Below are positions 16,901-64,000 of a stretch of 64,000 nucleotides of DNA, one piece after another. The translations under genes and the position numbers were made by a program. Below the pieces are notes generated by a model. The model was not told the DNA's origin. It made no database searches and was given only the letters and a program-made list of their open reading frames with translations. The first letter of the stretch is position 1; the number at the start of each line of letters is the position of its first letter. Location: NCBI RefSeq assembly GCF_964355755.1, contig NC_092680.1, positions 4,712,001 through 4,776,000 on the forward strand, read 5' to 3'. This DNA comes from Antedon mediterranea (taxonomy: Eukaryota; Animalia; Echinodermata).

Positions 16901-17358
16901 GTGTGATTCATTTTATGATGAGATCAACATCATAAGTATTTGACTGTTTTGAATTCAATAACCTAAATTTGTCTTAAACCGAATAATGGACTTTATTGCG
17001 AGATATTCATCATGTTATGGCTCACTGTAATTGTAATCTAATTGAAATAAGCAGTAAAAGTAAGTCCAGATCTAAGTTCGGAGGAGGAAGTTTGTTAATA
17101 AGCTTGTCAGTTTTATATATCAGAGGTTCACACTCGAGCAAGGTAGAAAAAGTCGTCTGCTAAAGCGCGCGAGTATTTCACTTCCCCAGCAAACTCGTCA
17201 CTTCCCTCTGACTGATCGGCTAAGCGTATAAAGTTCCAAATTTCTAAGTGAGCGCTGATTTTCGTGCATGGATCAAACTTTGAGTCATCGGCAGGGGATC
17301 TAGGCAACCTTCGACTCTAGAGTTTCTGAGATAGAAACGATATTGTTTTCAGTTGACA

Positions 17359-29300: not shown

Positions 29301-29890
29301 TAAAATACCGTAATTAAAATATCTTTTAAATGTATACGAAAAATGAATAGAATAGGAATTTAACATTATTAGATTTTCAACAAGTTGATTCCATGTTCGT
29401 GGGCCTGTAACAGTTAAAACGTGTGCAGTTATATTTAATCTGCAAAATGGTATTTGAAGGTAGAAAATTCTCTCATGTGTCAATATTAATTTTCTGAAAT
29501 TTGTTTCAAATACTGAAATTTGTTTCAAATTCTTAAATTTATTTTTGTTGTTTTCAGAAAAATATGAAAGAATTAGATAAGAAGCTCATGGATCAATTTT
29601 TCGAGTTAAGATCAGTTATCCACAAGATGACGTTTTCAACAAATCGACCAATCAGAGACTTGAATATATCAGATCTTGACGAAGAAGATGCTTTTTATGA
29701 AGATGCTGAAATAGTTGAATTTGATAAACAGTGTATACCCGCGCATGAGCAGTACATCCCAGCATTTAGGGGGCGAACTGTTTCTATGATGACTCCACCA
29801 TCTGAACGTCGTTTAAAACTATGGCCTCATAATAGGAGAATGCCGTCATTCACGTCAGAAGATGATGTACCATTAGACATGTTATTATGA
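17359..29890 (+). CDS. Large acidic, probably disordered protein with C-terminal FAM167-like coiled-coil motif (~1468 aa, 2 coding exons)
   Basis: Exon A 17359-21432 (ATG follows acceptor ttttcag at 17352; donor ATC|gtaagt at 21433). Exon B 29558-29890 (acceptor ttttcag, phase 0). The join reads QALQDKVDWVRDEI|KNMKELDKKLMDQFFELRSVIHKM, resembling the FAM167 motif (WLRKELxEMxxQDxQLARQLMxLRxxIxKL). Upstream exons are possible. Confidence 0.75.
22594..22715. mobile_element. MITE family A copy (intronic)
   Basis: TIRs and internal unit match family A. Confidence 0.8.
23794..23949. mobile_element. MITE family A copy (intronic)
   Basis: TIRs and internal repeats match family A. Confidence 0.85.
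26774..26934. mobile_element. Degenerate pogo/Tigger-like MITE
   Basis: gtagagcctctccttt start shared with ~30701; internal acccctattaa(a)g(a/g)ggaca repeats; inverted tgtccccttatagagg end. Confidence 0.55.
27822..28000. mobile_element. Harbinger-type MITE family B
   Basis: TIR AGC(T/G)TGGTTCCCACTAG with TTA TSD; homologues at ~30780-31105 and ~55937-56104. Confidence 0.85.
28661..28825. mobile_element. MITE family A copy (intronic)
   Basis: Near-complete copy flanked by TAA/TTA. Confidence 0.85.
29280..29480 (-). mobile_element. CR1/L2-type LINE ORF2 C-terminal fragment
   Basis: Translation PFCRLNI...GPRTWNQL...FKRYF resembles the GP.IWN.LP....F...LK tail of CR1/L2 ORF2. Confidence 0.55.
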
Positions 29891-42028: not shown

Positions 42029-45000
42029 ATGGCTGCAGTACAAGATGGAATTGAGAAGCAAGAAAAACGTGACTCATGCGATTACCAAAATTACGCATTT
42101 CCCGAGAACTTACAAACCGCATTTTGTGAAATGAGGCAAAATGAAGATATGATTGATGTAAGCTTGTGTGTCGGAGACCATGAATTCAGGTGCCACCGAA
42201 CGATTCTCGCCGCTGGAAGTCCGTACTTCCGTGCAATGTTCACCAATAATCTACGCGAGAACAGTGAAACAAAGATAGTATTACAGGACGTTAACCCAGT
42301 GATGCTTGAATTGATAATTAACTATATCTACACGTCAAAAATAATTATTACAACACTTAATGTTCGGGAACTTTTAGCAACCGCAAATTTCTTCCTATTC
42401 AAATCTCTTTTAGCTGCTTGTTCAGATTTTTTAGTACGTCAACTAGATTTAACAAATTGTTTTGAACTTCACGAATTTGCAGATCTTCATGGTTGCGTTG
42501 ATCTGAAAATGTCCGCTGAAAAATTCATTCTTCAAAACTTTGTGAAGTTCAGGAACGATGAGCAGTTTTTGAATATTAGTCCTGTACAGATGAAAGAGTT
42601 CATTGGCTCGGAGGATGTGCAGGTGCAAAACGAGAAGGAACTCTTTGATATCGTTTCTGATTGGATTTTACACGATAGAGAAAATAGAGTGCAATACCTA
42701 CCGCAGATTCTTTACTTGATTCGTCTGCCAGTTTTACCTTTAAAGACCTTGTACGAAATACAAACTGATGATTTAGTGCAAAATACCGACTGTCAGGAAA
42801 TAGTTGCTAAAGCGATCGAGGGCGCTTCTGGGCTACAGCAGGTTAAACATCCATGGCGACGACCTCGAAGGTCAAGCGACTATACAGAAGTAATGGTTGT
42901 TTTAGGTGGAGTACAAATGGCGAATTTAAAACAACGGAATAAGTAAGAATATTTGCATGAAAATAATTTAATTTCAAGAGCTACACTATCAAACTGTATG
43001 TGATAAAACATGTGATGTGCCCATATATGGACATGATGATGTCCTATCACTACCATATTTAGCATATCACCACCATATTTGAGCACATCACATTTTTTTG
43101 TTCAAATTGTCAACTTTTTTAAGTCAACTAATATTTATACATTGCCCTTAAAGGTGAAGTCTGGTTAACACTTAAAATTATATAAAACACAATAACAAAT
43201 TATGAAAATTAGCTTGCTTATTAGAGTTACTACACTAACAGCGTTGTTCTATTGCTTATGCTGCAGTTTTTCATTTGTTATATTGTATGTTGTTGTAATG
43301 ATATTTTAGTCAAATAAATAAACGAATAGAAGAAATAGAAAATACATATAGATATACATACAGATTTTTTTTAATGAGTCTAAAAATAATTTATAGAGCT
43401 GCAAATTTCTCTCCTGACAGATCATTCCAGAGTTGGACAGAGCAATATTAAAAGGTTCTTTTTTTACTAAAATACATTTTTATATACTTACGTTCTCTAA
43501 TATCTTTTTTTTTCAGTATTTCATCGTTTTGTTGTGACCCTACTGTGACACTAGATTTACCGTGGAAGAAGTTGTCAATGATGCCTTTTTCGTTGAAAAG
43601 CGTAGTAATGTACGATGCCGTTGTTTATTACAATGACATCTACATTACTGGCGGTTATGATGGCAATCGTACCAACCCTGTACCATCTGTATGGAGATAT
43701 GACACCCAGAAGGATACGTGGGATACAGCGCCACCATTAGTCTTAGCAAGGTTGGTGAGGTTAAGTTTATTCTCTAGAAGACAGTGATTAAAATCCACTG
43801 TTTATAATAGATATTGTTTACACAGGGTAAACTGAGCATGAGTATCCTTACCATTTTATTGGTCATAACAATACATATCACATGCCAACAAATTATAATT
43901 ATTGGTAGCACTCCAATAGAATGTTCAGCTTTTTGTAAACAGAATTTGTGCAACATGATATTGTTGACTGATCCATGTTAAAAAACCTCTTGTGTACGCT
44001 GTAGCTGAATCACTGCCTTAGTTAATTCCTATAGTAGCTTCCTGGCCTGGGCTAACCTTCAACATTCATTCAAAATGGAAGTAGCAACTAGCATATTAAT
44101 TGAATAAAAATTTAGAACAAAAGCAAATATGTTTTGTTTATATTATATTGCTTGTTTTATTGAGATGGAGCCAAGTTAATTTCATTAAATCGCAAACAAA
44201 TAATACAGTGTATAAAATAGAGGACCAACCTAGAAGTAAATTTGTCTCAGTTGGCCCTTTAACATGGTTACAAACAATAATAAAAACAAGTGAGAATATG
44301 AAGCATCAGTAATAATATATGCATATAAATGAAATGTTATTTGAGTAAAAGATATTTCTTTAATTCTTTTTTAAATTGAACCAAATGAACAGTATTGCAT
44401 ACTATTTGTTATACTCTACCATACTTTTAATCACATAACTAGCAGATCTATAAAAATAAAATGTGTTTCTTTATTTAATAGGTACCAGCATTGTTCAGCT
44501 GTTGTTGCGGGCAAGATGTATGTAGTAGGGGGATTTGACAAGAACTCAAAGCTCAACTCAGTTGAGTACTTTTCAGTTGAAACTAACAAGTGGCAACTAT
44601 GTCCACCAATGAAAGAAGCTGTTGCATTTCCTGCCGTCTGTGGCTACAAAAGAAGACTGTTTGTGATTGGTGGGTTGAAGCAGGATGATTGTGTGTATGA
44701 TAAGATCCAGTGTTTTGATGTAGACACCAAAAAGTGGACGGTCATCTCTACATTGACCGTCAAAAGCAAAGGTAAACCAATTTTTTTTCCGAAAGACCAC
44801 CATGTTTACCCAAAGAATTATATTAAATATTTGATCTTTGAATTACATACTATTATATTAGGTATATTTATCTATCTTTGTTTTATTTATTATCAATAAA
44901 TAAATAATAATAATATAATCTGTACTGTAAATGTATGCATTTTGTCATTTTGTAGACAGAATATAATTTCTAAAATACTATGTACTATATTATTTTTTTT

Positions 45001-46501
45001 TTTTTTTTTTTTTTTTTTTATTCGACTTCTCACTAACTCAGTTAGTGAAGGATCTGGACCAACAGGTGGTAAACACCTCTAAAACGGTCCAGTCCCAATT
45101 TGCACAGTGGCTGTGTGTGACAGTTTATTGTTTTTTAGTATTGTAGTTTAACCATGTACTGCATTGTTACTGAATATTCTGTCTAAAAGTTTCTATTATA
45201 AAGCTCTGTCTACACTATCAAACTAGTTTGACAAAGAAAGTGTGATGTGCCCAAATATGGTAATCATCATGTCCATATATGGGCACATCACATTTTTGTT
45301 CACATAAAGTTTGATAGTGTAGACAGGGTTTAAGATAAAGTGTTATTAAGGCAATATTAGAATACATTAGTAACAATACCCATTTAAAATTAATTATATT
45401 GAAGAGTTAAAAATTGTCATTTTCTAAAACGTTTTACATCCATAGTGAATCATAAACATCTATTTCTACAGTACGTTTTGTTTATTTTTGTACATTGCAT
45501 TTTACAGCTTGCAAGAGTGTCGTGCTAAACGAAATGATATACATAGTTGGTGGTTCAAGTACTGTAGTACAAGTGTATGACCCAGGACAAGATAAAGCAT
45601 TTGAGGTGGCTCCACTACTCAGCAGGCATATATGTACTAGTTGCACTGTCATAGATGGTAAGGGCTTTTTTCATGCATCCTTCAGATGGAATGTAAAGCT
45701 GTTGGTCTTGATTACATAAAATACACATATGTACGATAAAGCACTTAATACTATATTCAAAAGAATTAGGGGATCTTTTATAATATCCGTCCATAACACA
45801 ATCTTTTACTTTTCCCTCAAATGCATTGAATGTATTTTTATAACCTAATGTGTATATACTTTTTAATGTAATAATTTATAATGTTTGTATTTGATTGTGT
45901 AGTAAGATAAGTCCATATTTATTTTTTTGTTGTTGCACATCTCTTGAGAATTGTGCCTCTGTTATAAAAGAGAAACAATAAAGTTATTATTATTATTATT
46001 GTGTGTTGACCATGGTAGACGCTGCACTGTAATGGTCATCGGTCAGTAGAAGGCTTTATCCACATTTCTTCAATTTCTAGAATGAATACCAAAAGGGCTA
46101 TGAGCACTCACTGGCTAAACCCAGGGGCCCGGAGCATATGGCCACTCTGCATTACGCCACTGACGTATACCTATTGTGTATTTTTTTATTTATTTTAGTT
46201 GAAACTAAACTAATTTCACTCTTTTGTATTGACAGGTAAAATTTACGTTGCTGGTGGTGATAACATGACCGATTCTGAGAATTGGGATGTAATAGAATGT
46301 TTTGATCCGGCCTCTGGTTGGTGGACAGTCGCGGGCAAGCTTCCGTTCTCAATGTGTTGGCATAGTTCATTAACTGTGATTAAAGAAAAAGGCCCTTTCA
46401 TTAATTTGAATGAGGTGTTCATCTCTAAAGGGCCAAGCATGCTTTTTAAGACTGTGTATAGTGGTATAGAGGGTAGGCAAATAACCTTTGACCCTAGGTA
46501 G
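42029..46501 (+). CDS. Kelch-like protein (BTB-BACK-Kelch, Cullin-3 substrate adaptor family), 617 aa, 5 coding exons
   Basis: Exons 42029-42942, 43517-43750, 44482-44771, 45508-45657, 46236-46501 total 1854 nt in frame. BTB: FRCHRTILAAGSPYFRAMF, followed by a BACK domain. Kelch repeats: IYITGGYDG, MYVVGGFD, LFVIGG, IYIVGG, IYVAGG with Y/W motifs. Confidence 0.93.
42978..43105. mobile_element. MITE family A partial copy (KLHL intron)
   Basis: Partial left TIR and internal repeats; right TIR lost. Confidence 0.75.
44993..45125 (-). mobile_element. Poly(A)-tailed retroposon 3' fragment in KLHL intron
   Basis: ~27-nt poly(T) on +, AATAAA merging into the tail on -, with adjacent stem-loops. 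Confidence 0.6.
45202..45330. mobile_element. MITE family A copy (KLHL intron)
   Basis: Both TIRs present. Confidence 0.85.
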
Positions 46502-46939
46502 TAAGTACAGTGTTTCTGCAATAATTAAAGGTGCTAAAATATCTAGTCAATTTTACAAAGAAGAAACAACATGGTTGAAATACAGGTTATCAACAAACCC
46601 TCTTTTTTTATTGTTTTCTATCAATTTCTGTAGGTAATGTATGGTGTGTTACATACAGTATATATACTGGACAACATTGGGCTGGCCCAATATAATTTTC
46701 CGGAGTACATTTTAAAGAATAGGATATGATAAGTCTGTTTTTAGAAGAGTTTATAGTTTCTAAATGTTCAACTATAAGTAAAACCCTCCTCATTAATTGT
46801 AATAACATAATTTGGTACAAAAACAGGAATGGTGCTATAAATAAATATTAGTTTAGAATGTATTTGTGTACTATGCACAATTGCTAGTAATAATAATTGT
46901 TGGAAATATGAAGACTTTTTGTGGCCAAGCGTGTTGTTG

Positions 46940-47300
46940 ATTACAGGGCGTGTGTAACATTGGTTAAACCTATGGCGTATCCAGAGGTCTGGTCTGGCTA
47001 ACAGAGCATGTGTAGCGTTGGGTAAACTCATGCATGTGTACAGTAGCATTGAGTAAATCTGGGTAACAGGGCATATTATGTAGCATTTGGTAAACTCATG
47101 GTGTGGATGTGGGTCTTGATAACAGGGCATATTATGTAGCATTTGGTAAATTTGTGGTGTGGATGGAGGTCTGGATAACAGGGCATATTATGTAGCATTT
47201 AGTAAATTTGTGGTGTGGACGGAAGTCCAATTAACAGGGCATGTGTAGCATTGGGTAAACCTATGGTGTGGACGTGGGTCTAGTTAACAGGGCATGTGTA
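46940..47300. repeat. ~56-bp minisatellite downstream of the KLHL stop
   Basis: aacagggcat at 47065, 47121, 47177, 47233 and 47286, plus degenerate upstream units. Confidence 0.9.
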
Positions 47301-48819
47301 GAATTATTGTGGGATCGAACCCTACTTTAGACATGCCAGGTAAACTCAACAAAACAGTCTTTGATATGTCAAATAAAACATCCCCATTTCCTTATATAGG
47401 ATGTCATTTATCATTAATTAAGTTAAACCATAGTCGGTTTTCTAATTATTTGTCAAGAACTGCCAATAGCTTGATGGATTGAGTTAATGCAAGCAGTATG
47501 TGTGTGTAATTGATGTTTTGCATGCTTGATTTTGTAATGTATGTCAATATATCTATCTACTCTACCAAATGTATAGGTTTTGTTAATACTTAAATCATGT
47601 CCCAAATTATTCAACTGCAGTTGCTGCATTAACTCCATATTGTTTACTCTTTAACATATATATGTACACAATTATTTGGCAAGCTCTTTTGGGTAATCGT
47701 ACATTGAAACAAACTATATGTGATTGTAGTACAAACAAAATAGTTGAAAAATGTTGACATCCCTTACAGTTGAGTATATTCTTGTCCAACACATTTATTA
47801 TGATATACTTGTATGTAGCAATAACTTCAACTATGTGTATACTGTAGTTCATACTTTTAAATCGAATTGTATCTCATTGCTATACCTGTTTTATATAGCC
47901 TAATATGCAGAGGTTTCTTTAATAGTTCAGTAATGTATTTAAGAACCGTTTGTTTTATCATACTATAATTGAGGAATGTTGTATTTAAATTTTATGGAGA
48001 ATAAAAGAATTGTATGGAATCGTTTAAGATCGTAATGTAGTCTACTTTTACTGGACTCGATTCATCTTCTAATTTTGTGGTGAATCCATGATAATACTCA
48101 CATGTACTGGCATGCATTTCAGATATACATTTGGTTAAATCAGGGAAATGATTTGAATTTATTAGTAAAATCATAAAAATGAAATACAACGTGATAACAT
48201 AAATTACTAAACAATATTAAAATAATCTAAAAATTACAAAGTATTGCATTAAACACATAATATAACAATAAAATAATGTATTACAATTCATTCTTCCTTG
48301 GTTAAAAGTATACACATTAAAAAACAATAACAATAATCACCACGTCGAAAAACAAGCATTTATCTTTATTTGTCTTCTTACCTACTGAACCTCCTGTTTT
48401 CAATATTGTAAATGTTATGTTTAGCGCCCTCAATTTTAAGAACAACAGAAAATTAGGAAAAATATTATTTGTTCCTAATTTTAAATGAAGACTTTGTAAC
48501 GAGATGTCGATGATGACTGTCAACATTTTAACATTACAATAATTATCGTTCGTAGGTGATTATTGTAATTGAAAGTCATCGAAATGATGAAAATGACCTT
48601 TAATATTTATTATTGAACTGCGCTAAACTAATTCTTTTACCAATTACTCTACATCAGAACAATTAGCTTTTGTTGTATAGTAGTATCTCCTTCCCCTCGA
48701 CCTCCGCCGAGGTATATTCAGAGCGTCATTTCGACGATTGAGCATTCTCTAATTCTACGGAGCGCCATTTATGCCTTTATTTACTTCCGAAATAGAAATA
48801 GTACTATGGTAACTGGTTC

Positions 48820-49012
48820 AGTGGACCAAATTTAGCACCAGTGGAGCACAGTGATATAAAATAGAAATATGTCACTAATTTTAATATCTTTTCGTATGTT
48901 AATACACTGTGCTCAAGTGGACCCAATTTGGAGCCAGGGGAGCACAGTGATATAAAATAGAAATAAGTCACTGAATTTTAATATCTTTTTGTATTTTAAT
49001 ACACTTTGCTCA
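48820..49012. repeat. Two-copy 97-bp tandem duplication
   Basis: agtggacc...gagcacagtgatataaaatagaaata...atacact.tgctca occurs twice. Confidence 0.85.
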
Positions 49013-49014
49013 AT

Positions 49015-49222
49015 TGTCGTGGGTTCGATTCCGATGCTGGTCGGTGGAATAGAGTTAAGGCTATGCGAGCCACTGTGTTTGGGGTGCACAGATCATACGT
49101 CCCCTTTTCCACCACACATCATGAGGCGACAACATCAATGCATCTGGTGATCTGGTGATGTGGTGGAAATGACCTCAAAAGGCTGTGACCACAGTTGGTC
49201 ATACCCAGTACCGTTTTGATTT
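49015..49222 (+). mobile_element. Truncated tRNA-derived SINE-like fragment
   Basis: B-box GGTTCGATTCC at ~49022 followed by a GC-richer body; no A-box or cloverleaf. Confidence 0.4.
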
Positions 49223-51059
49223 TACGATCATTCGGGAAACCACCTCACGACGTAATACTTTAATACTAAATTGTTGTAGGCCTATATATATTCTTATAAA
49301 CACTTTTATATTGTCAAATAAATCGTTGTTCATACTGTACCATAATGTTTACCTCTATATTTATTCATTAATTTTGAGTTTTATGACTTATAAAATGTTT
49401 TTATACCAGATTAAATATATAAGCACCCACTTTTAAATGACATAAATTTACTTTTTTTTATCACTATACGTTAATTAATAATAACAAAGAATATAAATAG
49501 GTGGTATCTTTGATAATAAGAATAATCTATACAGACTTTTACGCGTGATCGAAACACCCGCGTCAATTCGATACCACGTTCTAAAACACGCACATAGCAA
49601 ACCTTCGAACCACCTGTTACTTTCAAACATAACATTCTCACAAAGGTCGGTAAAAACATATTAAATTTACGGCTCCGACATTAACATTATTTCAATAATA
49701 TCCAAACCAAATGGCTTTCCAACAAGGTAAGACTAATATTATATTTAGAACTAAATCATTTCTATTTTAAAATTATCATTCATATAAACCATAAAATATA
49801 TATTACGTAAATCCTATCTAATAATGTTAATATTTTAGCGTCCTGTATACACAGAAACAATTAAGTACGCAACATGAACTTTCAATCTCCTTATCTTGAA
49901 ATAAAATACTACTTTTACTTTAATTAGTATGTATACATCCGCCCTTATGATGAGGGCGGGCATCACTCACTGGAGCTCTCTGCTGTTACAAATTTCTCAT
50001 GCAAAAATCGCGGAATACTCATTCTTGTGATATATTAACTGATGTTAAAATACACCTAACACTTGGAAGTGACTAGCATGTGTTCAGTAAAGAAACCCAC
50101 CTAATACATGATAAATTCTGCAAAAAATATGCCAAAAGAGCATGGAAAAAGCGCTCCGCAATTATCAATTAATAGATCTAGAGATTGTACCAGATTTCCG
50201 TTCTGTATTGCAGAGGAAGACTTGCATAGGCCTAGTGTAAATTTCTGTTGTTTTTTTTTTTACTGTATCAGTTGATTTTAAAATGCCTTGTCATTCATTT
50301 ATTTCTTATGTTTTAATAACTTTATAATGTAATTTGTTAATTTTGCAAATGTAATTTCTGTTCATTTTAGGCCTTTTATTTATATCTGTATTTTGTATCA
50401 TCATTGTAACAACACTTAGGCCTAACTGCTGTAAATTTATATTTACAAAACTTTAAAAACACAATTAAATCAGGATTATAATTTGAGGTAAAATGGTTAA
50501 TAAAACACTAAAAATAAGATTAAATATTAAAATTAGGAAAATCGAAATAATAATAAAAATAATACTACTTTAACTAAATAACAAATAAAGATCATAACTC
50601 ATAACATATAAATTAAATGATATACAGTATTAACAAGAACATAAATAATAAAATAATAATAAACAATATAATATTTAAATTAAATGACATTTTTAATAAT
50701 AGGTCTAATAATATTTTCTTTAAAAATAATATATTAATAACATTGATAATAATACTAATAATTATTAATAACACTCCATCAAAGTTTAAGTATTGTACTT
50801 TTTGCTCTTTAGTTTCTTTTTGTACAATCCGTTTCCTTTCATTTAAATCTTTTTTCTTTTATTTTTTCTTTATACTTTTATTTAGCCTTCAGGCTAACAT
50901 AATGTATGTAATATATGTAAGAACGCACCGTCCAGAAGAACGTGTGCCGCCGATTTAAAGGCGTATGTTCAATAAAGTTATTACTGTATTAATTATTATT
51001 TATGGCTCTGATTACACATTTTAAAGTGCTCCCTCTATTTTTATTTAAATTAAAAGGTT

Positions 51060-51247
51060 AAAGTTCAAGTTTTGGAGAAAAAAAACACAGAAAAGGAGGA
51101 TCGACGCGTTTTTTCGGATCCCTCTCTCACACAATCACAGAGTTGTTCAAAGGCGTCCACATAAAATAAGATCTTGTTGATTGCTGTCTTTTGAAGGATA
51201 CTTATTGTTCAGAAAGGAATACCTTTTTTAGAACATACTAATTAAGT
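51060..51247 (+). other. Probable non-coding first exon of a gene whose coding exons lie beyond the window
   Basis: CpG-retaining patch and gtgagt donor at 51248, followed by a TAGGC/CTAG cluster like those after the KLHL and RhoGAP putative first exons, then CpG-poor DNA to the window end. Confidence 0.35.
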
Positions 51248-52674
51248 GTGAGTGATTAATTTGTATTTGTTTATTAGAACTATTCTGGTATATATTATTT
51301 GTATAAATCTTTGTTGGCCACCTTCACCTTCTTCTTTCTTGACGTTGGCGTAGCCTCCTAGAGAGAGGCAGGGTAGGCCTAGGATAGATAGCTAAGCTAG
51401 CCTTGCTAGGCCTAGCTAGGCTGTAGTAGGCCAGCCTAGCCCCTCTATCTAGCCTAGGCCCTAGATATTTTCTGGACTTAGGACAGTTGGCTAGGTAGCC
51501 CTAGCCTATTAATTATTGATATTAGGCCAAAGTCTGTGCTGTGAGTTGTTGATTGATATCCGCTTTAAACTGCATTTATACCCTGCACACAGCACAGTTA
51601 GGTTGTTTTACTAAACTTTAAATAATTTTTTTTCCACTTTATAATGTTCATTTGATCAAGAAAGGCCTACAGTTACAGCAGCATGATTTAATTGCTTTTT
51701 ATTCAATGAATTGAATGAAAGAGGCAGAGAGTGTAAAAAATATACTGTAGGGTAGCCAAAGAATACCGCAAAATGACATCACATTTGCAGAAAAGGGATG
51801 AGGTTATTATTATAGCATCGGTCAACCGGGTTATTTATAATTTTTCATTTCCTATCGGCATGGTTGACCATACAGTACCATATACCAAATTAATTGACAG
51901 CACGGTCAAACCATGCTTCTAATGGCTTGTTCACTACCGGCAAGGTCGACTGTGCCGATGAAACATTTTACATAATTACTGTACTGTACATACAGTTTAC
52001 ATTCAACTGTACCAATACATTATACTGTACAATGGTTGATATGTACCTTTGGAACAGTTGACCACACTTTTTGCAAAAAAGAGGCTAAACTAAATTTGGA
52101 AATCAATGGTTTAAGATATTCCCATCATCAAAATTTAATCATTTAAATTACAGTACTGGTGTTGTCTTTCCATCATTTTTTATTTTTGTGGTACTGTACA
52201 CCATGGGTTTCCAACAGGAAATATCCATGGACACATACTGTAGTGTAGTGTACAAACCTAACTTTAATATTGGTTTGTTAAAACTGACTAGCAAGCAGTA
52301 GCCTACTGTACAGTAGTATAATAATTATATTTAATAGTCGTTCATCTTTACTTACTGTATTATTAAAACATTTCAATTAATTACTAAATCAGGCCTTGTG
52401 TGTAATTGTAGCAAAATCAAGTCAGTATAGTAATTAATTAATGCTACTGTATACAATATGTCTCATGTAAAATATTGTAGAGTACAGGAGTTATTAGATG
52501 AGTAAAGTTTTTTTGATGTAATATTATTAAAATATTAAAAATATATTAACATTATTTTTAGAAGTAGTAACTGTAATGTAAATGTTTTGATAACAGTATA
52601 TACTATTATTCAGTCTGAATTTTGTGTGCAACATTCTCTGACAGTGACTGATAAGGGTGTGTTATTTCTGAAGC

Positions 52675-53449
52675 AGCTCTGTCTACACTACTTTATGTGA
52701 CAACAAAATGTGATGTGCTCATACTGTATAGACATGATGATGTCATACAGTATATTTGGTCATATCACTACCATACTTGGGCACACCATACTTTTTTTGT
52801 CAAACTATGATAGTGTAGACAGAGCTTCACTGTGACTGCAGTCAGGCATTTCAGATCTGTTGTTTGGAATGAATCCATTATGCACACACACACTTTACAT
52901 ATTAAATATTAAAATGTCACAGAGAACTGCAATAAAAAATTCCCAGAGCGTATGCTTCATCGCATAATGCAATAATGTAATTTTACATTAATTGTCACCT
53001 TGATGAAGACCGTGCCATGCTTGAAAACATTTCAGGATAGAAGTTTCTGAAACTAAAGCTTTGTCAAACTAGTTTGACGAAAAAAGAATGATGTGCCCAA
53101 TACTGTATGATAGTGGTAATTGCCCAAAATATGGTACAGTAGTGATATGACATCATCATGTCTATATACTGTACAGTTTGTATGCCCATTATATTGTCAC
53201 ATTGTAAGAAAGTGTGATACATTATTAAAAAACATTTTTTTTACTATGGGATACTGTGGACTAAAGCTCTGTCTACAGTACAGTACACTATCACTAGTTT
53301 GACAAAAAAGTGTGATACCAAATATGGTGGTTATATGCCCAAATATGGTAGTGATATGACATCATCATGTCCATACTGTATACAGTATGGGCACATAAGT
53401 AACATTTTTTTTGTCCCATAAAGTTTGATACTGTAGTGTAGACAGAGAT
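52675..53449. mobile_element. Three MITE family A copies (52675-52826, ~53057-53200, 53265-53449) carrying CAGTA/CTGTA insertions
   Basis: They align to the family A consensus once 5-bp insertions at TA sites are removed. Confidence 0.82.
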
Positions 53450-55720
53450 TAAAGTTAGTTGATTGCATGCACATTAAGCAACAACAAATAAAACAAAGCA
53501 TACTCTCTTAGTCTTACCCACAGCTGTCAGAGCGGAATACAGAAGAAACCTACAGTATAGTTTGAAAACCATTAGAACTTACTGTATCAATGCTAGCACT
53601 ATAAACTATAAGGATTTGATTAGTGCAACTAATTAATTTAATTGCATGTCTATAAAAAAAATGATATTCCTCCTTCATCTACAGTAATGGCCATACAATT
53701 TATAATTATAAAAAAAAAGGCACCAAATTCTCCGATTTAGATCTTATTATGTACAGTAGGCCTGCAGCTGTATATACAGTAATTCCAAAAACCAATAATT
53801 TAAAAAGTAAAGTTCTTATGAAACTATACAACCTAGAAAATCAATATAAAGCCACAACGCCTTCATATTTAACGTACAGTATGAATGTTCTTGATACCGA
53901 CATGTAAAAACAATCAAAGCAGTTATTCTGACAATCACTGAATATAAAATGCATGCATGTCGTAATTATTATGCAGCTAACATCTTGCAGAGATTGCATT
54001 TAAAAATGTATAAAGATTTTGTGTTTTAATAATACGCTGTGTTTAACTATGTACTGCAGTAACTGTACTGTACAAGTTGTTAGGTTCACTATTATCAGTG
54101 GGAGTACACAAATATTAATATGCACTGCTAAGTGTTATACTGTACAGTACTGTGTACCTACTGTACACAATCCCCTCCTCCCCCTACACACACACACGCA
54201 CAAATTATCATTCTACCGGCGTGAAACTATTGTTAACCTGACACTACTGTATTGTTAACCTGTTACAATTGTACTGTATTGCACCGATAACAAAATCAAA
54301 CAACAGACAAAAAAACATACAAAAATATGTTGTAATCATAAAATAATTTTACGCCTTCCTGATCATTTCATTCCAAGTCAGTGAGTGAGTAAATGTTGCA
54401 TAAAGAAGTTAGTTTGGTATGTACTGTAGATAATAATATATATTTTTAGCCTTATTCTTCTCTTGCAAACTCAATTGACGTGAACGATACAGGCACTTGA
54501 AAGCTGTTAATTTTATCACAATATTTATTAGGTCGTTTTATCTATTTTCATTATGTGAAGCTATAAAACCTTTTATCACTTTGCTTCTCATTCTTTGTTT
54601 AATAATATTTTGTATTGTATTGTACTGTAATAATGTAATGATAATAGTAATACTATACTATTTTAGTTAATTTGCATTTACTGTCAGTGAGTGCTTTTTT
54701 TTGGGGGCCGAACTGTTCGTTCAGTACAATTTTAGGATTGGAATTTAATAAAAAGTTGCTGTATACATACCATGATGAAAACAGTAGATACTGATGGGGA
54801 CTGCAGCTGTGTGAGGCCTCAGAAATAGGTACAGAGAGACCTAATGTCATTAGTGTGGAAGACTTCTCAAAACCGTCTCAACTACCCCCACCCCTTCCAA
54901 AAAAAAAAATGGTTTTAATCACAACTTATGTGGGCTGCAGTCTGTCACAAAAATGTATGAACTTTTTTTTGTGACGTCAGTGAAGATTTTCAACCCATAT
55001 CCGCCTAGCACAATTAGATCCATGTTGCACTACAGTATATCAGTAGTGTACAGTTACTCAGCATCACATTATTTGCACCATGAAAATAATTAGTTATATT
55101 ATTATTATTTGCTACCGTAGTTGTAGGCATTAACTATGGAAGAACCATGACATTGACAACAATTCTGTATCATTTCCCTGATCTACTACTATTACAATGT
55201 GGTTTTTATACTTGTGCTAGATTCATGTGTTGATGAATGAATACCTATTTGGCAAATTTCAATAATTTATGTTCATTTTCACTACAGTAGTATTGCGATC
55301 ACCATAGTGACACACTGTACCATGCCCTAAGGCAGATTCTTTGTTTTAATATTAACAATACATGTAAATTACCTATTAAGCTATTATTCTTCAATAAATC
55401 AGAATTAATAGGCTACAGTATTGGGATCAATTGTTTGCTTTCATTGTCAGGATTGTAGTAAAAGAAGTTGACTGTAATCCTGGCCATCATATACAGTAGT
55501 GTAAATAACCGTACAGTAGATTTTCTTGGCCTAATTACAGTACACTAGCTGATTACTATTGACGTCAGAATTAATAGCTAATTAATAATTGAAAAATACA
55601 CACTTATCCAAAGACTGGCAACTGTTTGGGTTTATTTTTTATAGTTACTCTGTTAATTAGTAGTTATGTTGCAAAATAAAAATAATCTGAAATCATTAAG
55701 ATTGTAACCATTATACATGT

Positions 55721-55890
55721 ACTCTAACTACAGTACACTATTAACCTTTATGTGACAAACAAAATGTGATGTGCCCATATATGGACATGATGAGGTCATA
55801 TCAGTACCATATTTGGGCATATCACTATCATATTTGGGCATATCACTACCGTATTTGGGCACATCACACTTTTTTTGTCAAACTACACTG
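55721..55890. mobile_element. MITE family A copy, degenerate
   Basis: Three internal 21-bp units; CAGTA insertion in the left TIR. Confidence 0.78.
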
Positions 55891-55936
55891 ATGGAGATAA
55901 GGTGTTTTAGCATAAATTGGTGACAGTGTTCTACAA

Positions 55937-56104
55937 CGCTGATCTCACTTGGATGCAACGCAACAACGTACTGTAAACGCAACAAAAGTGAGTTGACCAA
56001 TCACAAGCGACAGTTTGAAAGGGTCCATCATGTTGTGATTGGTCAATAAATTACAGTTCGGTTTATTGTATGTCCTTGTATTGTATCGAAGTGGAAACTA
56101 AGCT
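55937..56104. mobile_element. MITE family B copy, CpG-decayed
   Basis: Homologous to 27822-28000; CTGTA insertion at 55971. Confidence 0.72.
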
Positions 56105-57949
56105 TTAGTGAAAACGGGCATTTTTTTTTTGTTCAGCAATGTGTCCAATTGGAATGTTTGCTAGGCTATAATACCAAGAAGCATCCTAAAGATATGATTC
56201 GTAATTTTCTCTGCAGTTTATAATCTTGCTATTGTATCAGCATTGTCCACTAATACGCCGTTTAATTCCATAATGAACACAGCCTTATTGGTCAGATTGA
56301 TACAGCCACAGAATAAATCATTACCTATTGCTGTAAATGTATTATCAGTGGATTGGTATAATCCAATTGTGATTTGTTAATCCTATTTTAAATCCTGTAA
56401 GCCATGATCTTATCTCATTTCTCATCTTAAATTTCATAAACTGTAGGAATATCATGTGTGACTAATGACAATACTTGTACTTTAAAACAGATAAATCCAT
56501 AGTATATTGTGAATGTGAATACTGTGAATGTTTGCATGCAACATTAGAGAAAAAATGAAAAGCTTTTGCTGATATTCCATGAATTGCTGTACGCAATTAA
56601 TTGTGCAAGTTTGATATGCAAACCATCTTCAATGTTGAAACGCAGTCGTGCGATTCATTATGTTCAGATGCTGCTATGTATGCAATCAGGCAATTCGTTA
56701 GAGGTAGTGATTGCGTGTACGATAAACACTGAGTTAGATCACCATTAACGCTATGAATCTACATTGTTGTAGTAACGCGCCCCATTTAGTCGTATTGTAA
56801 ACACATTAATACTTAAACATTAACACATCAATTTCACTACTCAAGCGAGAATTAACTATAAACAAAACTTTCCTTCAACTTCTGTTGTTGAACTAAATTT
56901 GTTTTTGTATTTTACTTGCCACTTGTTTGAAACATCTTCATAAGAGTAGTTTTACTCAAATAATAAATTATGAAACCATCATGATATGCATTATTATGAA
57001 ATTCTCAAAGTTTTCAGTTTAATATTATTATTCTTTAGCCTGATCATTGGACATTTAACATCAAAATAAAAAAATAGGATTTTCCCTTAAGACATATAAA
57101 TTTGATTTGGTTTGATTCTGGACTTTACTAAGTGCACAGCAATAGTTTTAGCTGTTATGATTTTCCTAAGAGACTACAGTATGTATACAGTACCAAACTA
57201 CTGACATAAAGTTTGTCCTAGATCTGTTTATTCAAGAAAATATGAATGACTGGTAATTTCAAATTAACCTACCAATATTTTGTAGCTTGCTTTTTTTTTC
57301 TATACATTTTAAAAATCTAATTTTTATCTAACCATTTTGTGCTGCTCTGTGATATTTAATTGACCATTTCATTGAATCACCTTTCTGCTGTCCAAAAATA
57401 TGATCCAGTCTATTTCGTGCCTATAGCTGCTTACCAGGATAAACCGACAAATGCCTTATTTCTCCTCGAATAGCAAGATACTGTATACTTGAAAAGTAGA
57501 AAATTCATTGAACACGACCCCTCTCCCTAAATGGTACAGTCCACAAACCTCAAGTGGAAGCATCCCCAAATATCACGATCATCATAAATACACCAAAAGC
57601 AAATTTGTATCATAATTTAGTATCACAGTTTTTTGTTTTTTTTTTTGTATTTTTCTTTTAAGTTAGAAACCAGGATTTGAGCCTGAAGTGAAACTGACAA
57701 TAGCCTTTAATTAAGCATGGAGTTATTTTTTACCTCCATGCTTGAAGTTGACTGTTCAGAAACTACTCAGGCTATTGTGTTTAGGTTTAACTATCTGTAT
57801 GTACTATTGTTCAGTTCAATTTATTTGCCCTATGAACTTCACATTCTAAAGTTGATACTTTTGGAATTTATACAATGACTGCAATCATGAATAAAAGAAA
57901 TTTATATTATAAAAATACTTCCAAGGATACGATGCATATAAACCTACAG

Positions 57950-58122
57950 AGTCTATATCGTGCCTAGCTTACCTGTATAAACCGACAATAGCCCGTGCTC
58001 TCCAGAGGGAGGGCTTAGATACGAAAGTGAAAAGTTCCTAGAACACCCCTGCATTATAATGGACCCGTCCGCAACCACGCCCTCATGTGGGAACGTACCA
58101 ACGTACCACCGTCATCATTTTC
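57950..58122 (+). repeat. DIRS left inverted terminal repeat with 14-nt lE extension
   Basis: 57964-58122 is the exact reverse complement of 62889-63047. The outer agtctatatcgtgc is unique to the left end and is matched by the ICR. Confidence 0.93.
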
Positions 58123-58536
58123 TTTCGTAACGTGAGAGCGTTACGTCGTATGATACCAAGTGTTAGGATTGTACACTGTACATACTATACAAAGAGTTCT
58201 ATTACGCTGATTACTAGTTGACTTGGCCAGGATATTGAGTGTATTCCCACGGCCTGTTGCAGTACCAGCAGTTGATATTGTTCATATATCGTTGATCCGT
58301 TTTAAGTCGGGGTCTTCCTTAGATATAAGGAAGATTAAAAAGGAGAAAACAACACCCACTTCGTTGGATTTTAGGCCGGAACGGCCACGCTACCGGAAGA
58401 CAAAGGGAAAGCAATTTGCATTGCCACCTGGACTGCCTCAGCTGAGGCGTGGACGCACTGTTGCGTGAAACAACAACAAAGCCGTCGTCAGGTTGTATTG
58501 TTCTTTATCTTGCTAGGTTGCGTTCTGTGCCCGGAT

Positions 58537-59829
58537 ATGCCTAAGTCTGAATGTTGGCAATGCAGGGGCCAGCGTGCGACAGTCAAGTGGGACCGCCACT
58601 TGCTGTGCATTCACTGCCGCACCTGCAGCCAGGACCGCGCGCTTGCAACGGCCGCTGCGCCTCCACCGCAGAGTGGTACGCAGGACGATGGTTTGTTCCC
58701 ACCCGTACTGGAGGCCATCGCAGCAGCGGTGCGAGCTCTACCGAGGGAGGTTGTGCCCTCGGCATCCTCGCTTAATTATCCTCCTGTGCCAGTTCTGCCT
58801 CCGCAGTACTTTCAAGGTCGAGGGACGCACCCATCGCCGGATGTCGGTGGGTACGACGGTGACAGGACCATGACCTCGCTGCCTAGTGAGGATCGCTCCG
58901 AGGTTGCACAGGGTGGAGACGGTTTGCAGGCTCTTGTCAATCGTGTGGTTCCTGCTGTACTTTCGTACATTTGAGTAGAGTACGCCTATGACGCGCCGAC
59001 GCCCGCGCCGGCTGCGAAGAGGTACTCTACCTTTGGAGTGCGTGCTCCATTGAAGCGGGTCACGACTTGTCCAGTTGCGCCGCTGGATCCCGAACTTGTC
59101 GCTAGGGTAGAGGCTATAGCGAAGGAGCCTAAAACCCGTAGAGCTGCATCTCAAGATCTCGCAGCAGCCTTCCCGCTTCCGCAGGACCAGTTTTCAACGC
59201 TATATATCGGCACCACCGATCCCGGATGCAGCGAGAGAAGCGTGCGCGCGAGGATCAAGGTCTCGACGCCAACGGCAGATTTCTGTCTCCTTCGGCCGCC
59301 AGAACTGAGGAGGCGCTAATCGCGGTCGACCGTGGCGCACGCGAGACGTTACGAACGGTCTCGATGTCGGGCTACCTTCTGTCATTCCTCGCGGATCCGG
59401 ACCATCCACGGCACCTTGACGCGGACGTGATCTGCTTGCTTCAGCAGTTTACGGGCCTGGTCGCGGACCAACAAGTGACAATTTCAATGACCTCGGCCGC
59501 CGTGCGGAGGGTCAATTGACCGCATCACAACTAGCGAGTCGTTCGGTGCTGTGGATCTCTTCTACGGTAATTTCGCCGAGAAGAAAAATAAGTGGGCTCG
59601 CGAGCGAGAGGCACGTCGCGAGACGAGATCACGCAAAACGCCTCCAGCCCCACTGCCGGTGGTGCCATCGATCTCACAACCGCCGCCGTCGGTCCGTAAT
59701 CAGTCTGAGGTTGGGCAGACTCCTGGGCCGTCGCGACCCCGTAATTCCCGCCCCGCGCGTGGCGGTAAGCCGGGTAGGGGAGCACGTCGGGACCGCGGTT
59801 CGCGACGTGGTGACCGCAGGTGCCGGTAA
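58537..59829 (+). pseudogene. DIRS ORF1 (gag-like), disrupted
   Basis: Starts MPKSECWQC...DRHLLCIHCRTCS (Cys/His knuckle). In-frame stop at 58972, frameshifts near 59220 and 59520, Arg/Gly-rich C-terminus overlapping the ORF2 start. Confidence 0.7.
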
Positions 59830-61850
59830 CGTGCAGGCGAGGTCCGTGCCGTCCGGGGCCGGACCAGTGGGAGGTCGTCTCCTACGGTTCGTCCGAGAGT
59901 GGGAGTAGCTGATGGTAGACAGCTGGATTCTCTCCACACTTAGCTACGGCTACCGCATAGAATTTACGAGCCCTCCAGTGTGTGGAGGTCCTCGTCCGAC
60001 CACAATCCCCAAAGATCCAATAAAGCAACGAGTGCTTATGGACGGGATTGCCGCGCTGCTCCAAAGAGGAGCCGTAGTAAGGGTCGAAGAACATCATGCG
60101 GGCTCGGGCCACGAATCAACCGTATTCTTAACCAAGAAGTCCTCGGGGGACTGGCGACCAATTATAAATCTAAGACGTCTGAACAAACGATTTATTCGGC
60201 CCCGCAGGTTTCGGATGGAGACAGTCTCATCGATCCTGTTAGGGCTAAGACGAGGAGACTGGGCCGCATCGACAGATTTAAAAGATGTGTACTTTCACGT
60301 ACCAATCGCAAAAGAAGACCAACGTTGGTTGCGGTTTCGAATCAACAATTGTCTTCACCAGTTCGTCGCGATGTCGTTCGGCCTATCAACGGCTCCGCGC
60401 GTGTTCACGCGCACAGTTCGAGCGCTCGGTGCGTTCTTTCACAAGCACGGCATTCGCATATTCATGTATCTAGACGACTGGTTAATCGTGGCTCAGTCCA
60501 AGGACCGGCTGGTGAGCAGTCTCAATTGCGTCCTTCTCGTAACGGAACGCGTAGGGTTCATAGTGAACCGGGAAAAGTCGTGCCTGGCGCCGACTCAGCA
60601 TCCCATGTATCTCGGAGCGCAGATAGATCTCGTGTCGGGCAGAGTGTGCCCCTCACAGAAACGAGTAACCTAAGCCCTTGCTGCTATACAAGGCCTGATT
60701 ACCGCTTCCGCTCCGACAGCATACGACTGGCTGAGAACGCTAGGTTTCCTAGCCAGCTTTGTAGTTCTAGTTCCGTTTTGTCGGCTACGGATGCAGCCGC
60801 TGTAGTTCATCTGTTAGCCTTCTACCGGCCAGGTTCAGACTCATTAGACAAGTGGTCCCGATGTCGGCGTTCATTGTAACGCACCTCCAATGGTGGCTAA
60901 CGGACGGCCGATTGTTAGTGGGCAGATCAATTCAGAGATCAATTCCGGACACCCGAATAGAAACGAACGCGTCCGAAGCGGGTTGGGGCGGTTGCTCCAA
61001 CCAGAGTCACGTCTCCGGCGTTTGGAGTGCCGAGGAGGCGTTAGCCCACATCAATCTCTTAGAACTTTGGGCAGTAGACCGAACGTTGAAAGCGCTACTT
61101 CCAAACATGAAAAATTCACACGTCCATGTCTGCTCGGACAACACAACCGTGGTCGCGTACATCAACCGACAAGGAGGCACGGAGTCTCCGACTCTTTGCT
61201 ACCACACATGGACGCTCATGCACTGGTGCATCGCGCACAGAATAACGCTGACTGCATCGCATATTCCGGGCAGCCAGAATGAGTCGCGGACACGCTGTCC
61301 CGACTCGCTTTACGCCCGACCGAATGGCGTCTGTTGCCGAGCATAGCCACTCAAATATTCGACCACTTCGGACGGCCGCACATAGATAGACCTGTTTGCG
61401 ACGTCAGAGAACACGCAGCTCCCGACATTCTGCAGTCGATTCCGGGATGCACGTGCGTGGGCGGTGGATGCCCTGTCCATGTCATGGGACGGTTTATGGG
61501 CGTACGCGTTCCCGCCGATATCGATCATACCAATAGTTCTGACTCACATTCAGCGCTTCCGATGCCGAGTTCTGTTGATCGCACCGTTCTGGCCTCGTCA
61601 AGCGTGGTATCCGCTTCTTGCCAGTCTTCTTTACGATCACCCGCTGCGTCTTCCGGTCCGCGCGGATCTACTGACGCAAAATCGTGCGAGGTTCTCGACG
61701 ATCAACCTACAATCCCTGAACCTGACTGTTTGGCCATGTTCAGGGATCAGCTCAGAGACTCGGGCATATCATCTGGAAGAGAGTCGACTCTCACTGTCTA
61801 CAACAGCCGTCTACGACACTTCTTTCGCTGGTGCGGACAAGATAACATAG
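59830..61850 (+). pseudogene. DIRS ORF2: reverse transcriptase, RNase H and Dam-like N6-adenine methyltransferase domain, disrupted
   Basis: RT: PVGGRL..F...W, WRPIINLRRLN, DLKDVYFHVPI, FGLSTAPRVF, YLDDWL. RNase H: HINLLEL, SDNTTVVAYINRQGGT. MT: IDLFA (4-bp ATAG duplication at ~61382) and YAFPP. Stops at 59906, 60671 and ~60802, plus frameshifts. Confidence 0.92.
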
Positions 61851-62682
61851 ACCATAAGGCGATATCCTTGGGTCAGATCTGCGCTTTTCTGCATTACCTG
61901 TACGAATCAGGCTTGCAAGTGCGCACGGTGTCAGGCTACCGGTCAGCGATTGCGGCCATTACGCCGCCATTCAAGGATGGCTCGACGGTTTTCAACTTCC
62001 GCAGTAATCACGCAGTTGTTACGCGGTATGTTCAGAGAGCGACCTCCGTCTAAGGTCTTAGTTCCACGTTGGGACGTTAACGTCATTCTATCCGCACTCA
62101 CTCGCCCGCCATTTGAGCCAATGAGCAAGGCTTCATTATATAATCTCTCGCTTAAGACAGCGTTTCTGGTGGCGTTGTCCTCATGTAAACGCTGAGGCGA
62201 GCTACATGCGCTCACGCTAGAGCCAGGCCATATACGATTTGAGCGTGGTGGAGTCCGGTTATTATTCAGGAAGGACTTTCTGGCCAAGTCCCAGACGTTA
62301 AATTTTTCGCCGGCTGTGTTCGTTCCATCAATGTCCGCATTCTCGGGGGTAGTAGAGGACACATCCTGGTGCCCGGTAAGAGCACTCAAATTCTACATCC
62401 ACCGTACAGAGACGTTGCGAGAGGGTATATCTCACTTATTCGTCACATCGGTGCCCCCGTATCGGCCGGCCGCAAAATCCACGATTGCAACTGGGTCGTG
62501 GCAGCGACTCGGGCCGCTTATGAATCGTCCAGCACTTCGCGTTGTACGCTGGCGGTTCTATATCAGACATTATGACAGCGGCATGGTGGCGGACACATTC
62601 TACGTTTACTGAGCATTATTTAAGGGACATTTCTGCAACCATGGCGCCAGTAGCAGCAGCGGTGCTAAAGCCTAGGTTATAG
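61737..62682 (+). pseudogene. DIRS ORF3 tyrosine recombinase, disrupted
   Basis: ST..VY, YRSAI, PRWDVNVIL..L..PPFEP, KTAFLVALSSCKR*GELHAL (stop at 62193), CPVRAL..Y, C-terminal AAWW..HSTFTEHYLRD. The HxxR segment is absent. Confidence 0.88.
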
Positions 62683-62757
62683 GTATGTACACCTCACTTG
62701 CTCTGCTCTTTGTTAACTTACTCCCACCGCCGACTAGTTCTAGTCCGGTGCTAATCT

Positions 62758-62856
62758 GGCTATTGTCGGTTTATACAGGTAAGCTAGGCACGATATAGAC
62801 TACACAAACCAGTAGTGGTGTTAGTAGTCTATGAGTGCTAGCTTACCTGTATAAAC
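62758..62856 (+). other. DIRS internal complementary region (ICR)
   Basis: ggctattg...gatatagact is the reverse complement of the left end, joined directly to acacaaacc...gtataaac, the reverse complement of the right end. Confidence 0.92.
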
Positions 62857-62888
62857 TCCCTCCCGCCGTCCCCGCAGTCAAGTACGCG

Positions 62889-63084
62889 GAAAATGATGAC
62901 GGTGGTACGTTGGTACGTTCCCACATGAGGGCGTGGTTGCGGACGGGTCCATTATAATGCAGGGGTGTTCTAGGAACTTTTCACTTTCGTATCTAAGCCC
63001 TCCCTCTGGAGAGCACGGGCTATTGTCGGTTTATACAGGTAAGCTAGCACTCATAGACTACTAACACCACTACTGGTTTGTGTA
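62889..63084 (-). repeat. DIRS right inverted terminal repeat with rE extension
   Basis: 62889-63047 is the inverted copy of the left ITR. The extension cactcatagactactaacaccactactggtttgtgta is matched by the second half of the ICR. Confidence 0.93.
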
Positions 63085-64000
63085 ATGTATTGTGTGGTTG
63101 GTTTTTCTTCTTTTTAAGTTTGTACAATGTAAACTGAAAACAATTTATAGAATATTTCAATTGTAATATTTTTGTTTTTCTTTCAATTTGTTCCAATTTA
63201 TCTCACCTCAAATAATTTGATTGTAAAAGCAAAAAGACGTTTCCTGAATCACTGCAAAAATTTGTTTCACTTTACAGATGTCTTGAGATGAGATTAATGC
63301 TAAACTGAAACAAGTACAGTATGCTACCAATAGGATTTGATTTGACTTAAATCTATGCGACACCTAAATTAAAAAATTAAGTGCATTCAGTACATTAAAG
63401 AAAAAAAATTGTATTTTTTTTTCCGTCAAAACCCATCCACCACTGTCAATTACAATAATTACTATGATAGCAGTTTAAACGATTTACAAAAACTAGTGCA
63501 AACTGCAAATAACCTTGCGCAAACCCCCCAAAATCCCTTCTTCAAATCACACTGATTACATTATGACTTTAGTATTACTAATTTTTGTTTAGGGTTTGAC
63601 ATTACTGTACTACAAAAAAAGTTTGGCTCTTTAAACAATTTTTGTTTTGTGAAAAAAGTTTTTTTGGGGAAATTACAGATTTCACCTGTCAAACCTAAAA
63701 AATCCCCTTCCAAACTTTTTCAAACTACTATTACACAACTTTTGACTTGACAATGCAACGTTGAATGTTTGGGTTAAGGTACTTGTTGCTTGCTTGTTGA
63801 AATTACAATGCAGTACTACACACTATGTTTATAGAAAAACAGTAATCCAATTTCCTCCCATATTTAGGTCACTGCAACTTCATGCCAGTTTAAGGGGAAA
63901 TTCCCTTATTTTTTTAGTAATTATTTACTGAAATTTTATTTTTACATGTTGCAAATCCTTTGATCCGAAGAGTTTGATAGAAATTAAAAACTCTATTCAA

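Follow-up and report, generated by a model that had tools for sequence, protein, structure and literature searches.

A stretch of 64,000 nucleotides of the Antedon mediterranea genome (contig NC_092680.1, positions 4,712,001 to 4,776,000; AT-rich animal DNA with 34% GC, hereafter the window) contains a field of the words TACAGTA and TACTGTA. The field words are five-base insertions (CAGTA or CTGTA) at TA dinucleotides, the occurrence of which depends on the location within the window. They are probably the excision footprints of a family of cut-and-paste transposons that target TA and have CAG...CTG ends (of the Tc1/mariner or pogo type), a family that is likely to have favoured this chromatin domain in the germ line for a long time.

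Between positions 51740 and 57500 the two words are the top 7-mer and occur 47 times (23 TACAGTA and 24 TACTGTA, binomial P = 1), compared to 1.33, 2.21 or 5.39 occurrences expected from models of order 0, 1 or 2, respectively (Poisson P ~1e-44 against order 1). A preliminary description of this DNA, which had counted about 40-45 motifs by eye in ~6 kb and expected one or two, is thus borne out. A change-point scan identified as the best two-state segment a core at 51700..56000 with 44 motifs (10.3/kb) and fairly sharp boundaries; a tail with three motifs (57175, 57186 and 57479) extends over 56001..57500 (both regions are unstranded). The density in the core is 16 times that in positions 1-43000 (0.65/kb), and the density of TA was rejected as the cause of the field, because it is alike in the core and in 1-43 kb (112 vs 102 per kb). 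The background in 1-43 kb is itself about 3-fold enriched (28 motifs vs 8.8 expected), which does not agree with a process targeted to a single locus, as had been proposed. A process that builds intron sequence is likewise not supported, the inserted letters amounting to 220 of the 4261 bp of the core (5%). Four tandem motif pairs were seen, and random insertion at TA gives 3.6 +/- 1.7, so that the repeated cycles at one TA that the preliminary description had singled out are at the level of chance.

That the words are insertions follows from copies of repeats. We aligned 15 copies of a miniature inverted-repeat transposable element (MITE), family A, excluding a split partial copy near 8.5-8.65 kb. 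Eleven motifs are found in the four copies within the field, and the absence of the words from the copies at 3-45 kb, noted earlier, was confirmed in all 11 copies outside. Five of the six clean +5 insertions at TA (53274, 53279, 53374, 53381 and 53429) are located in one minus-strand copy at 53260..53454, which also has one shorter TA-CT-TA-like insert and six substitutions in 141 aligned bases; in each of the four runs, contigs representing MITE copies elsewhere in the genome lacked the five letters at 53429. A minus-strand copy at 53059..53219 contains the remaining clean insertion (53135), together with a near-clean and probable insertion at 53101 (a net gain of 4 letters next to a run of T) and an ambiguous motif at 53167. 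In the plus-strand copy at 52674..52830 both motifs are ambiguous (52722, +3 net, and 52746; other genomic family-A copies lack one or three letters at 52724), and in the plus-strand copy at 55729..55896 the left end with the motif at 55729 is degenerate. The insertions that had been proposed at 53135, 53274, 53374 and 53429 are therefore clean relative to the outside copies; among two others put forward, the one at 55969 in a copy of a second repeat family, B (55940..56100, plus strand, with decayed CpGs), is a clean +5 insertion as well, whereas the one at 55729 can be called probable only. Counted per TA, clean insertions in family A number 6/45 in the four field copies vs 0/129 in the 11 outside copies (P = 2e-4), and all family-A motifs 11/45 vs 0/129 (P = 1e-7). 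This contrast is not due to the age of the copies, because their substitution divergence is equal (32/516 bases, 0.062, in the field and 91/1424, 0.064, outside). Families A and B (e.g., 28657-28830 and 27817-28005) have AG...CT ends in TTAA/TAA-like flanks and may be Kolobok-like. Family A appears to be very high-copy in all four runs; no further loci of it were found in viral contigs, and a match in metagenome contigs (L001), consisting of 21 bases without the rest of the MITE, was dropped.

CpG decay of TACCGTA/TACGGTA, replication slippage and an assembly error are all extremely improbable origins of the words, and we rejected them as the source of the field. The domain is indeed CpG-depleted, and TACCATA/TATGGTA are somewhat raised in the core (five occurrences, 1.17 vs 0.35 per kb). 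However, CpG decay would make them as frequent as the motifs, an outcome that the preliminary description had recognized as fatal to its proposal, and the core contains five of them vs 44 motifs; several of the core occurrences are native MITE-A sequence, and the motifs are length gains, not substitutions. Two of the four tandem pairs are of the same type and compatible with slippage, but the other two mix CTG and CAG (52304/52309 and 54138/54143), which is impossible by slippage, and slippage is also unable to make CTGTA after GTGTA. Tandem Repeats Finder reported no array of the motif unit (the only 5-mer array was one short TTGTA run). Concerning assembly, the eight gap-free contig pieces listed for the public run X2 contain 40 of the 47 motifs; this run is possibly the window's own sample and counts against an assembly error but not as a second individual.

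The words are identical to the canonical footprints of Sleeping Beauty (SB), in which end-joining leaves the element's three terminal bases between two TAs (PMC6943129; bioRxiv 10.1101/659086), and the preliminary description had correctly recognized them as such. The 7-bp words, the net gain of five bases at TA and both central variants are shared, and the 23:24 split fits an SB-type footprint, with both central variants produced. There are also differences: the SB footprints are known from experiments at single donor sites, while here 43 of 576 TA sites in 5.5 kb of natural sequence (scars removed in silico) were hit, non-canonical products are scarce, and the flank preference is not ATATATAT. 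The TAs that were hit are depleted of A at +1 and of T at -1 (9 of 84 flanks vs 33% at unhit TAs, P = 7e-6), a symmetric bias that might resemble that of a target-selecting enzyme.

Other known systems resemble the field in part. The footprints of Tc1/Tc3 of Caenorhabditis elegans (TACATGTA; TACATA/TATGTA) are likewise TA-flanked remnants of element ends left by end-joining, but they are other words, and they are described as genomically rare and mainly somatic (PMC3520976, PMC13148408, bioRxiv 659086), whereas the words of the field are fixed and dense. The TACATGTA motif of Phytophthora has been proposed as a binding site (PMC3520976). In Trichoplax adhaerens, an ACAGT pentanucleotide microsatellite (the same five letters in rotation) is clustered near genes and was proposed to provide factor-binding sites (PMC2871265); it forms tandem arrays, whereas the insertions of the field are single and scattered, and tandem pairs among them are about as frequent as expected by chance. 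ZB, a native Tc1/mariner element of zebrafish, is reported to favour gene bodies, enhancers and the vicinity of start sites, i.e., transcribed and regulatory chromatin, and to hop locally, but the enrichment reported for it is slight, compared to a ~16-fold local excess here, and it leaves footprints of 0-3 bp (PMC7913693). In the open-access literature, matching of the exact words yielded no report of a natural, dense and fixed TACAGTA/TACTGTA field, which is weak evidence.

If the words are excision footprints, the established mechanism would imply that an element inserts at a TA and duplicates it, that its transposase later excises the element leaving 3-nt staggered ends, and that end-joining of these ends leaves TA-CAG-TA or TA-CTG-TA. 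The element itself would be lost by excision or selection, and the near-neutral 5-bp scar would drift to fixation, adding a new TA target. The weakest step is the final one, namely that the hotspot would reflect a lasting target preference for the domain and not the trail of one element. Elements of the pogo/Tigger type have CAG ends and target TAs.

The gain of words appears to have extended over a long period. With the MITEs excluded, the core contains 32 perfect words and 36 one-mismatch neighbours, compared to 16.5 +/- 3.9 neighbours predicted at order 1 and 19 predicted by the rate in the background, an excess that would represent older scars in decay. In a related species (runs X6 and X7), the letters at 51878-51884 spell a motif that is absent from the window, and five letters are gained at 51756-51795, an interval that spans one TA (only the sizes being given). 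The gaps in eight listed pieces of a second individual (run X5; +7, -15, +5, +1, -1, 0, 0 and +6/-3, the +5 letters lying within 53963-54128) fit 5-bp scars but, as sizes only, prove nothing. Based on MITE copies of the same age, scar formation per TA proceeded at about 2-4 times the substitution rate per base, which, with assumed mutation rates of 2e-9 to 1e-8, translates into 4e-9 to 4e-8 scars per TA per generation. We infer that the local insertion rate is at least as great as this; such a value is high but would not in itself require a new process, although the preliminary description had placed the density far above what normal transposon turnover would leave.

The field lies in a CpG-depleted domain (50200..57949, unstranded; observed/expected ratio 0.37-0.5) that resumes at 63091-64000; the ratio is 0.37 in the field domain vs 0.93 in 1-43000. 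The family-B copy at 55940..56100 has six CpGs left vs 15-19 in three outside copies, and ten of its positions align with reference CpGs, four of which are kept, five changed to TG, CA or TA and one to GG. Germline methylation is typical of invertebrate gene bodies, and because of the CpG depletion and the loss of CpGs in the family-B copy, we infer that the domain is a germline-methylated region such as a gene body. The pattern along the window is a mosaic: the ratio is 0.39 in the body of a kelch gene (43000-48000), 0.93 in the genes upstream and 1.06 in the 48-50 kb spacer (48000-50200).

In favour of excision footprints are the exact SB words, the 23:24 split, the contrast between field and outside MITE copies, the family-B insertion, the flank bias, the mixed tandem pairs, the relative's own motif, the one-mismatch excess and the chromatin bias of ZB. 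Several observations weigh against this explanation. Methylation alone is excluded as the cue for the domain preference: the introns and 3' region of the kelch gene are equally depleted (CpG 0.30), yet they contain five motifs per 474 TA vs 44 per 479 TA in the core (P = 3e-9), i.e., 9-fold fewer scars per TA, a rate no different from that of CpG-normal regions (P = 0.39), and CpG depletion or methylation was therefore rejected as the sole cue. The flanks do not fit the target consensus of SB and ZB, ATATATAT or ANNTANNT (PMC7913693, PMC8934666), T at +3 having a frequency of 0.32 vs 0.30, which speaks against SB's own family but leaves a TA-targeting transposase unaffected. By-products of SB other than the canonical words (TACATA/TATGTA, TACTA/TAGTA and TACGTA), which account for over half of the products in human cell culture (bioRxiv 659086), are at most slightly raised in the core (TACATA/TATGTA, 1.9 vs 1.3 per kb in the background; TACTA/TAGTA, 3.5 vs 2.8; TACGTA, 0 vs 0.2); the spectrum of SB footprints varies by cell type (PMC6943129). 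Within the 64-kb window there is no TA-flanked element with CAG...CTG inverted ends (five pairs were found, at chance level) and no transposase was seen, and the termini of MITE families A and B are not CAG. For C. elegans, footprints made by end-joining are reported to be mainly somatic (PMC13148408); clean end-joining in the germ line is an assumption of the footprint explanation. The absence of the motif at 51743 from the related species, which would speak for the explanation, is weak evidence as the site is in a divergent block. The gap letters per aligned base in run X6 are similar inside and outside the core (165/1968 and 118/1653), giving no support for a raised total indel rate in the core.

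The same scars might instead be the trail of a single element, or of a few, that made local hops within one haplotype, without any lasting preference for the domain. The fairly sharp boundaries of the core would agree with this, and SB re-inserts within 3 Mb in ~80% of cases (PMC3271037), ZB even into the same intron (PMC7913693). It is nevertheless improbable, since the reported scales of hopping are hundreds of kb or Mb and not 4 kb (PMC3271037), the related species has its own motif within the field, and the decayed neighbours point to long accumulation. A further possibility is that C(A/T)G plus TA was written at TAs by something other than ordinary transposition, e.g., a transposase, domesticated or abortive, whose substrates are very short, with no full elements resident. 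Products that are almost purely canonical and a window devoid of a donor element would be accounted for in this way, and Trichoplax has an abundance of the ACAGT repeat close to genes despite having few, apparently inactive transposons (PMC2871265). On the other hand, ordinary transposition leads one to expect the TA flanks, the 1:1 split between CAG and CTG and the symmetry of the target bias, and the absence of a donor from 64 kb is weak evidence. We know of no enzyme that writes these letters at TA without an element, and consider such a writer unlikely.

It is very unlikely that scars form evenly across the genome and were kept here by selection (e.g., as enhancer binding sites) or lost faster elsewhere. 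The ~3-fold enrichment of the background would be in line with it, as would the proposals that the ACAGT and TACATGTA words are factor-binding sites in other organisms (PMC2871265, PMC3520976); against it, the insertions in the MITE copies are at scattered TAs and in both orientations (five in one copy of 195 bp), the words decay, and the motif at 51743 was not kept in the relative.

Excision footprints left by a TA-targeting family thus remain the explanation that we favour, and a bolder version of it may be formulated, which we regard as speculative and rather unlikely. In this version, a chromatin mark would guide a CAG-ended transposase to particular transcribed domains in the germ line, strongly enough for scars to arise per TA faster than point mutations per base. 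The genome would then be a fossil map of insertion sites, in which classes of scars (TA-C(A/T)G-TA in the field; TA-GGCC-TA and TA-CCGG-TA in other parts of the window, with none in the core) mark different chromatin states; in its boldest form, scars would be formed without full elements ever having been resident. The new element in the present data is a bounded, rate-calibrated natural hotspot of a textbook footprint. Transposon activity is usually judged from the copies that remain, and excised copies go uncounted; if the words are scars, they provide a direct count of past insertion-excision cycles and a map of germ-line target preference. Counting them genome-wide would then allow tests of the true extent of cut-and-paste turnover and of the use of end-joining in germ lines to mend the breaks that excision leaves. 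The field is also a warning that such words, when enriched near genes, need not be factor-binding sites.

The preliminary description had placed the field in an intron, but no exon was identified: none of 109 open reading frames of at least 38 amino acids had a Pfam match above the cut-off, and in 48-57.9 kb the splice-site filter left no exon candidate. Rfam gave no matches, PDB none for a 20-residue candidate, and strand skews were uninformative. A candidate exon lies at 50997..51357 (unstranded). The related species shares it with 11 substitutions over 360 bases, and this conserved piece ends at 51356, one base short of the candidate exon start at 51357. A strong acceptor-like site is present on the minus strand at 51357/51358 and a weaker donor on the plus strand at 51371/51372; the candidate contains three short open frames, and AATAAA occurs downstream on the minus strand at 51270 and 51040. 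Judging from these signals, the field could be the last or the first intron of a gene to which the candidate exon belongs.

Other TA-flanked words were encountered in the window. The word TAGGCCTA occurs 30 times (6187 to 51407; 0.7 expected), with a triple tandem at 26066-26085, and TACCGGTA, TA-flanked like TAGGCCTA, eight times (0.4 expected); both are likely candidates for further classes of TA-flanked scars. Neither occurs in the core (2.3 expected for TAGGCCTA, P = 0.1), a hint that TAGGCCTA is separated from the core field. A dense patch of TAGGCC/GCCTA/TAGCTA at 51370-51530 is situated beside the candidate exon boundary, just before the field, and outside the listed pieces of the related species.

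The remainder of the window includes a long-ORF (open reading frame) gene at 17-30 kb, a cytochrome P450 gene, a BTB-kelch gene at 42-46.5 kb and a GC-rich DIRS-like retrotransposon at 57950-63090. In the long-ORF gene, a single open frame of 1384 codons, acidic and serine-rich, extends over 17335-21489 and is likely one giant exon, and a probable later exon without a Pfam match is located at 29537-29890. A search with the kelch protein gave only three distant matches (28-33% identity) and was uninformative. The retrotransposon contains a reverse transcriptase frame (Pfam RVT_1), interrupted frames and inverted termini, the terminal segments of which (57964-58122 and 62889-63047) are 100% identical; its assignment to DIRS is our reading of the reverse transcriptase frame and the inverted termini. 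No TACAGTA or TACTGTA was found inside this element. At 57407-57586, 400 bp upstream of the young element, there is an old, diverged copy of the DIRS terminus, in which the motif at 57479 is located (the copy being too diverged for an insertion to be called). The presence of an old terminus beside a young element suggests that this family arrived at the locus repeatedly.

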